Shown: piece by piece, positions 24,226 through 30,051 of the stretch
Layout of the letters: every line of letters begins with the position of its first letter
Numbering within the stretch: position 1 is the first letter of the stretch
From: Escherichia coli
GTDB taxonomy: Bacteria; Pseudomonadota; Gammaproteobacteria; Enterobacterales; Enterobacteriaceae
Strand: one strand, 5' to 3'
Length of the DNA stretch: 64,000 bases
Assembly: GCF_003334405.1 (NCBI RefSeq)
Contig: NZ_QOWM01000002.1
Notes under the pieces: model-generated
The model's input: the letters and a program-made list of their open reading frames with translations, nothing else
Databases searched by the model: none
Told to the model about the DNA's origin: nothing
Program-made: the position numbers and the translations under genes

Positions 24226-24942
24226 TCACAAGTAGACTACGCTTATCACAGCTTTCCCATCAAGTTCGATTTTTTCTGAACCGCCTAAATCATTCGCGAT
24301 AGATGCGCTCACCTGAAGCGGTATAATGGCGTTCGTTACAGGAGTTGGGGTTGTTTCACCTGGTTTTACAAAGGTGTAATAATAGCTTTGATCGACTGCA
24401 AGCGGATAAGCGGTGAGCGTTTGCCATGCTCTTTTTTGCCCTGTTATGACGGCATCTGCACCTGCTATTGATACAGCTAACGTCTGGCTACCATTGCTGG
24501 CACTAATGTTGTTGCTATCAATTAACACGGCATAACTACCGATATTTTTATTATCTTTTGTTTTCCCTAAGCCGAATAAGCGCGTTGTCTGGCTAATATA
24601 ACCTCCGCCATTTAAGGTATATTTTACACCACTCTGACCCCCACTATCTTTTCCGGTGGTCATACTATCCATTCGTGTATCACGAGCGGTAATCGCAATG
24701 CCGGTAGCGGATTCGCAAGTTATAGTCATATTAATATTACGTGTTCCAATCTGTGTGTAGTGCTGCGTTGAAAGTCTATTGACTGAATGACTACCGAAGT
24801 TAACAACTCCGCCGTTGCTTAGTATTGGAGTACAAGCTGCAGCTTCCAGAGTCACCTTAACGTCAATTGATACTCTATCAGCGGCTTGCGCTGACATGGC
24901 AAAAAAGGCACTTCCGGCAATCAGTAATTTTACATTGTTCAT
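24226..24942 (-). CDS. yhcF: Secreted DUF1120-type protein, paralog of GltF (likely fimbrial subunit of the cryptic chaperone-usher cluster)
   Basis: 238 aa with signal peptide; C-terminus IELDGKAVISVVYL parallels GltF IKLDGNVTISVQYL. Confidence 0.85.
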   Translation of the reverse strand: MNNVKLLIAGSAFFAMSAQAADRVSIDVKVTLEAAACTPILSNGGVVNFGSHSVNRLSTQHYTQIGTRNINMTITCESATGIAITARDTRMDSMTTGKDSGGQSGVKYTLNGGGYISQTTRLFGLGKTKDNKNIGSYAVLIDSNNISASNGSQTLAVSIAGADAVITGQKRAWQTLTAYPLAVDQSYYYTFVKPGETTPTPVTNAIIPLQVSASIANDLGGSEKIELDGKAVISVVYL

Positions 24943-25490
24943 TTTGCCTCCACCAGGACCGTCAGATTGCCTGTAATATCTGTCATGTCGGTTAGTTCCC
25001 CTTCATCCTTAAAAGCTGGAGCCATTGTCAGTGTGAGGCTAACGCTTTTACCGCTATCAATTACCACTTCTTGACCATTTTGCATAAACACCAGCCAATT
25101 ATTGGGGGAAGTACTAATTGATGCTGTTCCTGTGCTGCCCGGATTGTCATTTTTGCCACTGGCTAACGCCAGGTCGAGATTGTTACTACCTGAAAATGCA
25201 TCGCTGGCGATCAGATTTAATGAACCATTCGGGCCAAATCCAAATCCGTTGTTGGAAATATTAGCGGTATTCAACTGAACACGAATATGAGCGTCCTGAT
25301 CGCATTGCATTACCAGCGTGATTGTTCTGTCTGCTAATTGTGTTGTTTTACCCCGGTCAACTTGGCGCATGGCAGCACTTCGTTTGCCATAGTCGATATT
25401 TTGTATGCTACTGGAGATATTACACTCTGCCTGAGCGGCCATGGCGAAGTTCAGCAGCAGGCATCCTGTTATTATCCGTTTCATTGGCAC
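24939..25490 (-). CDS. yhcE: Secreted fimbrial-like protein YhcE (intact reading frame)
   Basis: 183 aa with signal peptide MPMKRIITGCLLLNFAMAAQA; overlaps neighbouring genes by a few bp. Confidence 0.7.
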   Translation of the reverse strand: MPMKRIITGCLLLNFAMAAQAECNISSSIQNIDYGKRSAAMRQVDRGKTTQLADRTITLVMQCDQDAHIRVQLNTANISNNGFGFGPNGSLNLIASDAFSGSNNLDLALASGKNDNPGSTGTASISTSPNNWLVFMQNGQEVVIDSGKSVSLTLTMAPAFKDEGELTDMTDITGNLTVLVEAK

Positions 25491-27861
25491 TCTCCTGTTG
25501 CTGTCTCATAGAACACATCTTTTGGTGCATCTTCTGGGAATGTAAGGTGAATACGGCATGATTGCTGCTCATCTTTTATATCTAGCACCATGTCCGGTTT
25601 GATGTTATTGAGGAATACAACACCGTCATCCACTGATGTTGTCAGATAGTTGCCTTCACTATCTTCAATCGCAACGCCTCTGGGCAGTTTTTTGCCGTCG
25701 GAAAGTGTGATATTGAGTAATGCACGGCGTTGTGTTATCGCACTGAATCCGACTTTCCCTACTGCACCACGGCCTTGTTTGATCATTTTTGTGCCGTTAC
25801 CGATATCGACATTTTTTGGCAAGCTGGCGGTATCGATCTCAACTCCTGATGTTCGCCACGGCTGGATTGATGGAATGACGGCATTACCCCGAAAATCTGT
25901 CCATACTGGGCCTGCCTGAGATGTAATTCTGACACCTGCAATATTGTTATCCATTTTTGCGATGGCGAAAGTGTCATTGATAGTCCACGGTGAAAAGGTC
26001 ACTCCCTGATCATGTACGGCAATACCACCTGACATCGTACCGTTGTAAGTACGGCTATCACTGCCGCTTGCTCCTGCGGCAAGGCTGACTTGGGTGTAAT
26101 GGAGATTGGAACTGATACTGCCGTTCAAGCTCGTTTCACGTTCGTCGTGATCTCGTTCAGCATTCACATAGTAGGACATCTCATCTGAGACGACTCCCAT
26201 GACACCAGTACCATAGTGGGTTTTATGATCGTCATGGCGAGTATACAGTGTGGCGGTGTTTGATCTGCCAAATGGAATACTGATGTTGACGTAGAACAGA
26301 TCACCATCGTCTTCATTATTTTCTGAAGCACTAAGTTGATGCTGCCAGTTGACGGAAACCGTGGCGTGTTTGAACGCTTTGTTCCAGTTAATATTAAGGT
26401 TGCTTGAGTCATTGTCACCGTCGTAACTATATGTTTTATAGCCACTGATGTTGAAACCACCCAGAATGGAGTTAGACCAGTTTAAACCAAGCGCATAAGT
26501 GCTTTTAGTCGGATCGGTATAATCATCATCAATCGCTTCAGACAGTTCGCGATAATGGCGATCAGATCGAGTGAGGCTGGTTGTTAGCCCAAGTGAAAAT
26601 GGGAGATTGTAGTTCGCGTCAAGACGATATTTCTGTCCTTGCAGTGAGTCTTTCGTATCCTGCGATGTACTAATTTGGCTGCTCACTGTTAAATCGGGCA
26701 GGGGAACCAGACTCGACCGGATTGATGCCGCCTGATAATTTTCTGCTACGATAACGCCGCCGTTCATTGCACTCCAGCGTGTCAGATTCCATCCGCTCGA
26801 TGCACTAATTACCCAAGGTGATTCGTCATAGTCATCGTCTACCCGCCCTATCGCGAAGCGATAACCCTGGAAGCTTTCTACATGCTGATTAAACAGGGTG
26901 GAGGGAACAATATAGTTGTGCGAACTACCGTCTGTTTCGACAACGGTGACATTAAGATCACTATTACCATTGCGAACAGGTACATCAGGGATAGTGAATG
27001 CGCCCGCAGGAACCAGAATGGAATGAATTAAAACTCCTTGTTGACGAATCTCGACACGAGCCTGAGAGGTGTTGGCTATACCAGTAACTTGCACACCACT
27101 GCCGCTGGTTTGCAATGCGTTGTCCGGTGCGATTTCGATACCGTAAATACTGGCTCCTTCCAACACGCTATTATTGAGGTTAACTTCACCTGCTCGCATG
27201 AGTGTTTTAAGATCTGTAAAGGTACGTTGAAGGTAGGTTGACGAGTTCTGGTTACTGAATGTGCCATTTGTTTGTGTAAGGAACTGATGGCTGCGTAACA
27301 TCCAGTCATTAATATTAATCCCGCCTTCAAGTGCAGCCTGGGAGTAGTCCGAACTCCCATTAGAAAATTCTGCACGGCTGCTCATCAGAGAGTAGTTTAG
27401 CAGCGCAGCTGTTCCACCAGTTGCTGCGTTTGTGAGATCCAACCCTATGGGAATGATCGCCTGTGGTGAAACGATAATATCTAACGCTTCCTGGTTAGGT
27501 AATGGTGTGATTGTGGTACCCGGGTAGGACAATATATAGTCGTAACAGCCATTTTTTTCTTCAGAAGGAATTTTTAAACCGGCTTGTTGCAGAAATGCCT
27601 GATCAAGACAAATGTCGCCATTTTCATCAAAGCGCGTAGCAATGTTGCCTTTTTTTTCGCCATTTACTGATACTATCAGTGAATATTCACCTGGCAAAAA
27701 ACGGGCTGAACGGGAAAAATAATGCGATATATTAGGATCTACACCTAGTGATTTTAATGTTTCCCGATCAAAATCAACAGCGGCAATCTCTATACCATCT
27801 GCATTGGCTGGGGGAGAAAAGGCAAAACCAATGGTGTAGGCCAGTAACGTTTTTTTAACAT
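25481..27861 (-). pseudogene. yhcD: Fimbrial outer-membrane usher YhcD, frameshifted near the start codon
   Basis: Usher body open from 27886 down to 25481 but no ATG/GTG in frame before the TTG at 27697; ATG at 27859-27861 is one nt out of frame at an A7 tract; signal peptide KKTLLAYTIGFAFSPPANA lies in the body frame. Confidence 0.75.
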
Positions 27862-27881
27862 CCTTGTCGCTCCAGGCAAAG

Positions 27882-28727: not shown

Positions 28728-29492
28728 TTATAAATACTGAACGCTGATAGTGACGTTACCATCCAGTTTGATCGTTTCATCAGAACCAAGAATAGTATTG
28801 TCATTTACCGCAGCATCAATCAGTAACGGGAAGGTGACCGCTGTAATGGCAACAGGTGTCAGTTCCCCTGTTTTTGCAACAGAATAACCGCGCTCGATTG
28901 CTGAGCAACTTGTCAGCGAGCAGAATGCGCCATTAGATGAGGCTTTCCATGTGGGGGTCGCTGCTGACCAGTGGTCAGTTTGAATCAGGTCGACAGGAAT
29001 TTCACCTGTATCGTCCGCCGCGTGAATCCCACCATTAGACCTGTCAATACCAATGGATGCAGCGCCAATTTTTTGTCCATTAGGCGCAGAACCTAAACCA
29101 AAGGCGTTTTTCGTTCCCTTCATATCTACGAGAGTATCATAAGCTTTTTCAATATAGGATGTGTCGTTTAACGCTACAATGGTCGACTGACGGTTATCCT
29201 TGGAGGTTACAGCAATTAGCGTTGGTGCTGTGCAGGTTATATTTAATGTGCTGTTTTTGCGGCCCAGTTGAACCAGTTTATTACTTTTACCGGTCGGATT
29301 CAGCGCACTGTTATGATGTTTCCCATAGTCAACAATGCCGCCGCCCGTAACAACTGGGGTACATGCACCAGGGGTATACTCGCCGATGATAGTTAATTCT
29401 GTATCAGTTGAATCTGTTGCCATGGCACTGAATGCTGCAACAGAAAGTGCTGCACAAATAGCAGCTGTTGTGAGGTTCTTTTTGAAAAACAT
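28728..29492 (-). CDS. gltF: Periplasmic DUF1120 protein GltF (probable fimbrial subunit)
   Basis: 254 aa with signal peptide MFFKKNLTTAAICAALSVAAFSAMA; paralogous to YhcF. Confidence 0.88.
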   Translation of the reverse strand: MFFKKNLTTAAICAALSVAAFSAMATDSTDTELTIIGEYTPGACTPVVTGGGIVDYGKHHNSALNPTGKSNKLVQLGRKNSTLNITCTAPTLIAVTSKDNRQSTIVALNDTSYIEKAYDTLVDMKGTKNAFGLGSAPNGQKIGAASIGIDRSNGGIHAADDTGEIPVDLIQTDHWSAATPTWKASSNGAFCSLTSCSAIERGYSVAKTGELTPVAITAVTFPLLIDAAVNDNTILGSDETIKLDGNVTISVQYL

Positions 29493-30010
29493 ATGAACAT
29501 ATCCTTAATAACAAATTTATTTTTTAAAATAAAAAGCTGAAGCAGTATATATATCTGTTTGTGAATGTAAATAAATAACTCGTTCAGAAATAGCCAACTT
29601 GCTGGGATGTATTTATTTAATGAATTTTATAGTTACGATCATGTGAATAATAAGGTGCTGGTGAGGTGGTTTGTGGTGATAATTATTCATTACATGAATG
29701 TTTGCGCTGAAAAATAGGAAAATATATAGATAATTAAGGATAATATATTGGTTTTTTATATTCATATTTTGTATATTAATATCGAGACAATTTACATGGA
29801 ATGAAAAGACTGAATAGCTTGCAGAATCGGTATTGTCAGAGGTGTTAACAAGTAATTGAGACGGATTGTAAATGAGAAATTGCTTGATGTGCTTCACTCA
29901 TCAGACTTGGTGAACAAAGCACAATTTATTGAAAATTATCCCTATTATAGGAAAGGTCAAACGCTCATGCCGCATTTGCCAGAAAACAACGCGCACTTCG
30001 TCAGTAATTT

Positions 30011-30038
30011 GATTCGCCAGACACAGTCTGGCGAATTC
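30011..30038. repeat. 28-bp imperfect palindrome GATTCGCCAGACACAGTCTGGCGAATTC just downstream of gltD
   Basis: Inverted repeat, near-identical arms to P3 inside yhcG. Confidence 0.7.
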
Positions 30039-30051
30039 ATTGTTACCTCGC

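Follow-up and report, generated by a model that had tools for sequence, protein, structure and literature searches.

The 64-kb stretch of Escherichia coli DNA analyzed in this work (the window, to whose full length all coordinates refer) carries five genes, gltF-yhcA-yhcD-yhcE-yhcF, on its minus strand at positions 24226 to 30051, downstream of gltBD. We consider it very likely that these genes constitute the Yhc beta-class chaperone-usher fimbrial operon, carried by an optional islet of 5.8 kb behind gltBD. In this small optional cluster, which is probably silent, gltF is probably the gene of the main fiber subunit. The initial annotation had placed gltF at the head of a chaperone-usher cluster, as its first subunit gene, rather than in the glutamate synthase operon, and the predicted fold of its product, its co-occurrence with the other genes, its orientation in related genera, and the literature all bear this out. 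The main point is already known, having been published between 2007 and 2017, and current understanding is not overturned. Added here are counts of how often gltF and yhcADEF occur together, the inverted orientation of the module in other genera, confident pilin-fold models, and the identification of YhcE as a donor-strand-less DUF1120 relative, along with its fused form in Pseudomonas.

The assignment of Yhc to the beta class goes back to Nuccio and Bäumler (2007) and Korea (2010), as cited in Del Canto 2017 (PMC5216030), and the 2007 classification is likewise cited in PMC3032704 and PMC8174762. Del Canto 2017 described GltF and YhcF as putative structural subunits, YhcA as the chaperone, and YhcD as the usher; found the cluster restricted to phylogroup A, with wild strains lacking the IS5 insertion of K-12 and one strain carrying a premature stop in yhcD; and noted that production of beta-class pili had never been published (PMC5216030). 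Archer 2011 assigned gltF-yhcF to the beta class and noted that strains W, B, and Crooks lack this cluster (PMC3032704), and in Qiao 2021, the 12 chaperone-usher operons of MG1655 include gltF-yhcADEF (PMC8174762). The Yhc fimbriae of K-12 are encoded at the same locus and in an identical gene order. The flank of the cluster at 36100-61000 matches K-12 MG1655 at 100% identity; the cluster itself, however, lacks the IS5 that MG1655 has in yhcE and carries seven instead of eight A residues (A7 for A8) at the usher start. NCM3722, which lies within K-12, is also free of the yhcE IS5.

Gene products of the cluster and their predicted folds

Coordinates of open reading frames (ORFs), spacing, and GC content were computed on the window, in which positions 24000 to 30200 match many complete E. 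coli chromosomes at 100%. All elements of the cluster lie where they had first been placed, on one strand and in a compact, partly overlapping array (Table 1). Gaps of 559 nt (gltD-gltF), 171 nt (gltF-yhcA), and 20 nt (yhcA-yhcD) are followed by 4-nt overlaps at both yhcD/yhcE and yhcE/yhcF. GC content is 44% in the cluster and 32% (minimum, 25%) in the gltD-gltF spacer, versus 57% in gltBD and 51% in the window as a whole. The gltF-yhcA gap has about 33% GC and contains a promoter-like match at 28608-28579; this gap was the IS5 insertion point in all sequenced evolved clones of an unrelated laboratory evolution experiment (PMC8403718).

GltF and YhcF align over their full length at 30% identity (E = 6e-26), and both match Pfam DUF1120 (PF06551), with E values of 1.8e-45 and 2.3e-47, respectively. 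Their C-terminal strands are near matches, exactly as first read from the translations (IKLDGNVTISVQYL in GltF and IELDGKAVISVVYL in YhcF). Judged by eye, the N termini of GltF, YhcE, and YhcF are all charged, then hydrophobic, and close in A-x-A, in agreement with the signal peptides that had been assigned to the three proteins. Since a search of solved structures with the GltF sequence gave no meaningful match (the best, at E = 0.0015, was to an unrelated designed protein), a comparison of folds was needed. The GltF model has a pilin fold whose top PDB matches are almost all chaperone-usher pilins, and the model of YhcE has a pilin fold as well. Structure prediction, which had been proposed as a check of the pilin-like character of these proteins, thus gave a positive answer for both GltF and YhcE.

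Word-indexed searches for homologs were shallow, yielding 17 close relatives of GltF and 27 to 28 of YhcE; an exhaustive profile search yielded 1,592 DUF1120 clusters. The DUF1120 homologs, 148 of which were compared, have a signal peptide, an invariant Cys-Cys pair, and a C-terminal strand of the pattern LDGxxT..YL, and before the first Cys, they carry a short segment of alternating hydrophobic residues with a near-invariant Gly12. GltF likewise has an N-terminal extension and the invariant disulfide, and its C-terminal strand closes with YL. The sequence pattern of a putative donor strand is present, and residues 1 to 18 of mature GltF are unstructured in the model. The N-terminal peptide of YhcF is ADRVSIDVKVTLEA.

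YhcE is a more remote member of the group. Compared pairwise with GltF and YhcF, it gave E values of only 0.017 to 0.23, and its match to Pfam DUF1120 fails (E = 0.12). At the profile level, by contrast, YhcE together with its Enterobacter and Kluyvera orthologs aligned with the DUF1120 profile over 176 columns in hhalign (probability, 98%; E = 2e-13). This alignment begins at the first cysteine, and in 12/12 YhcE sequences, the mature protein starts one residue before that cysteine, so that the N-terminal extension is absent. The earlier claim that GltF, YhcF, and probably YhcE are secreted paralogs therefore stands in pairwise comparison for GltF and YhcF; for YhcE, it stands at the profile level only, and YhcE has no donor strand. 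A reading of YhcE as a lipoprotein was ruled out, since the residue that precedes the Cys is E or D in most homologs, which does not make a lipobox.

The PapD-like chaperone and the usher that had been recognized in yhcA and yhcD were both recovered with NCBIfam models. YhcA scored 320 bits (E = 9e-96) against NF007392, "fimbria/pilus chaperone family" (cutoff, 183 bits), and its orthologs carry PF00345 (PapD_N). YhcD scored 1,201 bits against the usher model NF011832 (cutoff, 723 bits), and its orthologs carry PapC_N, Usher, and PapC_C. Thus, a chaperone, an usher, and at least one secreted subunit with a pilin fold, as in a classical chaperone-usher operon, are all encoded here. The putative placement of YhcD in the beta clade of ushers draws on the 100% identity of the cluster to E. 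coli genomes in which the gene is annotated yhcD and on the literature. The sequence GGTAATAAATATGTCACT (27894-27911, minus strand) lies in the window at the yhcA 3′ end, and the usher start codon follows about 30 nt downstream. This sequence is the PhoB motif from chromatin immunoprecipitation sequencing (ChIP-seq) given for "(yhcA) yhcD" in a study that places a PhoB site at the yhcA 3′ end and reports low RNA counts for yhcA (38) and yhcD (425) (PMC10294691).

Distribution of the cluster and state of the usher gene

To what extent gltF travels with its neighbors was counted over 5,426 complete E. coli genomes. gltD is present in every one of them (5,426/5,426); gltF with its leader is nearly complete in 1,120 (~21%) and present in any part in 1,293, and the yhcA-yhcD junction occurs in 1,135. 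Thus, gltF does not co-occur with gltBD as a member of a gltBDF operon should. Genomes without the cluster align to 24000-24170 and, depending on the haplotype, either to 30012-30200 or only to gltD from about 30050. The variable segment accordingly spans approximately 24171-30011, and therefore the AT-rich leader belongs to the islet. In most cluster-free genomes (BL21 type), yhcG and gltD are about 180 nt apart, and the sequence in the region of the hairpin that follows gltD is different. In some others, such as MS7163, nanQ abuts gltD and the hairpin is kept, the match beginning at 30012 (query position 6013), and in some genomes, the cluster was removed by IS1. We noted at least three "empty-site" haplotypes between the nan operon and gltD; in several genomes (loci L002 to L005), yhcG is cut by IS1 or IS3 family elements or by other rearrangements.

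A pattern-based locus search of reference genomes returned 3 loci, and look-ups of exact proteins gave the contexts in Kluyvera, Enterobacter, and a divergent Escherichia clade; two more such look-ups met nothing but contigs shorter than 2 kb. The order DUF1120 (1 to 3 copies), chaperone, usher, YhcE, YhcF is kept in Enterobacter hormaechei, Enterobacter mori, Kluyvera, and the divergent Escherichia. In the last, GltF is 61% identical and the five ORFs are intact and in order, and the E. hormaechei orthologs share 31 to 62% identity with the E. coli proteins. In Kluyvera (L010) and E. mori (L016), the module stands behind sspB and faces gltD in convergent orientation, so that the gltF ortholog cannot be transcribed from gltB there. 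The head-to-tail position behind gltD was found in Escherichia only; neither position nor orientation relative to gltBD is conserved beyond this genus. Distribution, synteny, and orientation are thus three independent lines that tie gltF to the fimbrial module. A gltF-like first gene is present in three copies in Kluyvera (L010, 7011-9724) and in two in E. hormaechei (L007, 8211-9747), which fits a major-subunit gene under antigenic diversification.

Could the cluster be an eroding, nonfunctional relic that forms no surface structure in any strain? We regard this as unlikely. For it speak the frameshifted usher start in the window, the IS5 that interrupts yhcE in K-12, IS1, IS2, or IS3 insertions or IS1-mediated deletions in several other genomes, the lack of the cluster in most E. 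coli, and a yhc deletion that gave no adherence phenotype (PMC5216030). However, about 1,120 genomes keep at least 80% of the region, and those with annotation that were inspected have five intact genes. The five ORFs are also intact, in the same order, in the divergent Escherichia, Enterobacter, and Kluyvera alleles, which implies purifying selection, and the pilin hallmarks are invariant over approximately 1,600 DUF1120 clusters.

The usher frameshift, which had been taken to fit a cryptic or decaying locus, does exist in the window sequence, which has A7 where A8 is usual. The usher ATG at 27861 is followed by TTA and the seven A residues, and that frame ends after 23 codons; the long usher frame has no ATG, GTG, or TTG until 27697. 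One added A restores MLKKTLLAYTIGFAFSPPANA... and with it a normal signal peptide, the first five usher codons being out of frame in the window. Because the usher start codon is out of frame, the window copy is probably assembly defective if the base call is correct. The PGAP annotation does not call the A7 form a pseudogene and begins the protein at a noncanonical downstream codon. A7 was matched exactly in 27 of the 1,135 genomes with the junction, and the 33 further rows listed all align with one extra base (33/33, A8). Both tract lengths are found on otherwise identical haplotypes of 6.2 kb. The flank at 36100-61000 is uninformative as to whether A7 marks a clade, given that at least the 60 best records, K-12 included, are 100% identical. 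The slip at this mutable homopolymer could represent either a real loss of function or a homopolymer error in assembly or sequencing. As a sign of decay, one slip in a homopolymer at the very 5′ end of the gene is weak, and the IS insertions and deletions in other genomes are better evidence.

It has also to be asked whether the A7/A8 tract is a phase-variation switch of fimbrial assembly that operates by slipped-strand mispairing, a reading that we hold to be highly improbable. The location of an 8-A homopolymer at usher codons 3 to 5, the two lengths on one haplotype, and the lack of an in-frame ATG, GTG, or TTG start in the A7 form would suit such a switch, but A7 is rare (27/1,135), and long-read homopolymer errors could give the same A7/A8 pattern. 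Moreover, the tract is interrupted or shorter in other alleles, reading TTG AAG AAA in the divergent Escherichia and A5 to A7 in Kluyvera and Enterobacter (E. hormaechei), and thus there is no conserved length-toggling repeat.

The AT-rich leader and the relation of gltF to gltBD

The spacer between gltD and gltF had been described as AT-rich, ending in a palindrome, and free of any convincing gene, and this description holds in all its parts. PGAP annotates no gene in the spacer of an identical genome. A GTG-initiated ORF of 94 codons at 29613-29897 (minus strand), of low-complexity AT-rich sequence, was taken as a chance ORF, PGAP leaving it unannotated, and Rfam, scanned over the complete region, gave no match at E ≤ 1. 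The palindrome corresponds to a hairpin that begins 15 nt after the gltD stop codon and has, as RNA, a folding energy of −22.6 kcal/mol (z = −3.6). No U tract follows it, so that it does not qualify as a canonical intrinsic terminator. The divergent Escherichia allele has the hairpin too, and it is kept in some genomes that lack the cluster. A terminator scan of the spacer found two "terminators," both of them inside gltF. On the sense (minus) strand, the untranslated DNA at 29610-29890 contains 14 to 29% C and 5 to 11% G; such a C-rich, G-poor leader resembles a Rho utilization site and would favor Rho-dependent termination of read-through from gltBD.

The four other taxa all have a leader of 270 to 550 nt with 26 to 30% GC ahead of their first DUF1120 gene, and in Enterobacter and Kluyvera, the leader opens with a canonical sspB terminator. 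In the window, a candidate promoter for gltF (TTTACA, a 16-nt spacer, and TATACT at 29571-29544) precedes the gltF ATG by about 50 nt. A block that overlaps its candidate −35 element, ATTTATTTACA..TCA.AAACA..TA.ACT (29544-29580), is conserved in the leader of the divergent Escherichia, which otherwise aligns poorly with that of E. coli. A second block shared by the two leaders, TATATTTTCCTATTTT, may be a regulator site. Published data on regulators include a CsiR ChIP peak that was typed as intergenic and assigned to gltF, with gltF up 2.5-fold after CsiR induction (PMC5217608), and a peak of the RpoH holoenzyme, obtained by systematic evolution of ligands by exponential enrichment (SELEX), that was assigned to yhcA (PMC5493296). 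The AT-rich leader of the module itself probably drives expression, at a level that is probably low under normal conditions. Both the cluster and the leader are AT-rich relative to the window and to gltBD, as would be expected of a horizontally acquired locus silenced by H-NS. The separate control and silencing suggested in the initial annotation may thus apply, although literature searches on H-NS together with these genes yielded no occupancy data for this locus.

Goss et al. 2001 reportedly observed no nitrogen phenotype for gltF. The view of the original genetic description, in which gltF completes a gltBDF operon as its genuine third gene, is expressed from the gltB promoter, and acts in nitrogen or glutamate regulation, is scarcely tenable: gltF is indeed the next gene downstream of gltD on the same strand, the hairpin without a U tract need not terminate transcription, and the assignment persists in a RegulonDB-derived Lrp target list and in PMC8403718, which cites Castano 1988, but gltBD is present in every complete E. 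coli genome and gltF is missing from ~79% of them, the Enterobacter and Kluyvera orthologs of gltF stand behind sspB and converge on gltD, its product has a signal peptide (by eye) and a pilin fold (in the model), and 559 nt of untranslated, AT-rich DNA, C-rich and G-poor on the sense strand and probably favoring Rho-dependent termination, lie between it and gltD.

Several points weigh against assigning gltF to a separately expressed fimbrial operon. The structures are predictions, from which donor-strand exchange and the order of subunits would follow, and the alignment of YhcE is shallow, with 12 sequences. Promoter consensus sites were no more frequent in the spacer than in shuffled sequences, so the promoter call is weak. 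With no U tract at the gltD hairpin, some read-through from gltBD, or co-transcription with it, is possible, and RegulonDB-derived lists and other papers keep gltF in gltBDF. With these points counted, the beta-class fimbrial operon is the reading that we retain as very likely.

Table 1. Positions of the genes, leader elements, and neighboring features in the window
Feature	Coordinates	Strand	Basis or remark
yhcG, PDDEXK/DUF1016 nuclease-family gene bordering the islet	22914-24041	−	
Variable islet, 5.8 kb (approximate extent)	24171-30011	n/a	Alignment of cluster-free genomes
yhcF, second DUF1120 pilin with N-terminal extension, candidate adaptor adjoining YhcE	24226-24942	−	Pfam DUF1120
yhcE, secreted remote DUF1120 homolog, candidate tip/initiator subunit	24939-25484	−	
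yhcD, outer-membrane usher	25481-27861 (open frame, 25481-27697)	−	NCBIfam NF011832
A7 homopolymer, frameshift site at usher codons 3 to 5	27850-27856	−	
yhcA, periplasmic PapD-like chaperone	27882-28556	−	NCBIfam NF007392
gltF-yhcA gap, 171 nt	28557-28727		
gltF, secreted DUF1120 protein, predicted major pilin	28728-29492	−	
gltD-gltF spacer, 559 nt	29493-30051	−	
AT-rich untranslated leader of the fimbrial module	29493-30011	−	
Candidate sigma-70 promoter for gltF	29544-29571	−	10/12 consensus match
Conserved 16-nt block TATATTTTCCTATTTT	29711-29726	−	Identical in E. coli and divergent Escherichia leader
Hairpin, gltD-side edge of the variable region	30012-30036	−	Perfect 11-bp stem, 3-nt loop
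gltD, glutamate synthase small subunit, core-genome neighbor outside the module	30052-31470	−	Annotated gltD in identical genomes
gltB	31483-36051	−	

YhcE, a possible split tip, and relation to known fimbriae

Donor-strand exchange is the established mechanism by which Fim and Pap pili are built. By analogy with these pili, YhcE, because it has a pilin fold without a donor strand, would accept a strand but not donate one and would be limited to the distal end of the fiber.

Two Pseudomonas loci bear on this point. There, the gene directly after the usher (L008, 6362-7504; L009, 7637-8902) encodes a single two-domain protein of 380 amino acids. The N-terminal domain belongs to the YhcE family, as found with hhalign (probability, 97%; E = 3e-11) and with a YhcE hidden Markov model (domain E values of 3e-12 and 9e-15), and reaches a probability of only 19% against the general DUF1120 profile. 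The C-terminal domain is a DUF1120 domain that gives the best YhcF match of its locus and is orthologous to YhcF. The linker between the two domains, EATLRARFAPAAC, stands at the position of the N-terminal extension of YhcF, RVSIDVKVTLEAAAC. Since YhcE-like and YhcF-like domains are fused in Pseudomonas, this Rosetta-stone arrangement suggests that the enteric YhcE and YhcF are neighbors in the fiber and jointly form a split two-domain tip. Like the window, the two loci encode several DUF1120 proteins together with a chaperone that is 40% identical to YhcA and an usher that is 34% identical to YhcD; they differ from it in the fusion of the YhcE and YhcF domains, in having more flanking DUF1120 paralogs, and in having no gltBD nearby.

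The function of YhcE was called "unclear" in Del Canto 2017, where beta-fimbriae were described as lacking tip subunits (PMC5216030). We raise as a tentative proposal, which we stop short of calling probable, that beta-class fimbriae do have a dedicated tip, in which YhcE caps the fiber and YhcE and YhcF together represent a split form of the Pseudomonas-type tip subunit. If so, the N-terminal extension of YhcF would complement YhcE in trans, at the position of the linker in the fused protein, and YhcE would become the candidate for receptor binding in an as yet uncharacterized class of fimbriae.

From the folds, the motifs, and what is known of these families, assembly of the fiber may be pictured as follows. 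All five products would be exported by Sec. In the periplasm, YhcA would cap the open groove of each pilin-fold subunit, and YhcD, in the outer membrane, would polymerize the subunits by donor-strand exchange. YhcE, lacking a donor strand, would enter first and come to lie at the distal end. YhcF would be next, its N-terminal extension filling the groove of YhcE, a contact for which the Pseudomonas fusion argues. GltF, encoded first and duplicated in related genera, would make up the bulk of the fiber. Any read-through from gltBD into gltF would be incidental to this process.

This layout resembles that of type 1 (Fim) and P (Pap) fimbriae, in which the major subunit gene likewise comes first and is followed by the genes for the chaperone, the usher, and the minor or tip subunits, and YhcE shares with the FimH and PapG tips the lack of an N-terminal extension. 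Differences from Fim and Pap are also evident: the Yhc subunits have approximately 230 residues, with about 100 extra residues inside the pilin core, and belong to Pfam DUF1120 rather than to Fimbrial (PF00419). The putative Yhc tip is a single pilin-like domain whose gene is separate from that of its partner pilin and not a lectin-plus-pilin protein, and unlike Fim, Yhc has no invertible switch of the fimB/E type. Stj of Salmonella (usher, StjB), the sole beta-fimbria described in S. enterica, falls in the same usher clade according to the literature (PMC9238391). The subunits, YhcE, and the usher of the window match four consecutive NCBIfam models, NF011829 to NF011832, which, to judge from their numbering, would be the models of the Salmonella Stj cluster. 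The subunits score 55 to 107 bits against equivalog cutoffs of 226 to 337 and are thus distant relatives and not orthologs.

Databases and papers continue to pass on the name gltF and the label "gltBDF operon," and lists of regulons or metabolic models that group gltF with glutamate synthase carry a wrong label. What remains of interest is the uncharacterized beta-class fiber together with the split-tip hypothesis: the beta class is the least studied class of chaperone-usher fimbriae, and the structural models and the proposed split tip, in which YhcE and YhcF may jointly form the end of the fiber, give constructs that can be tested.

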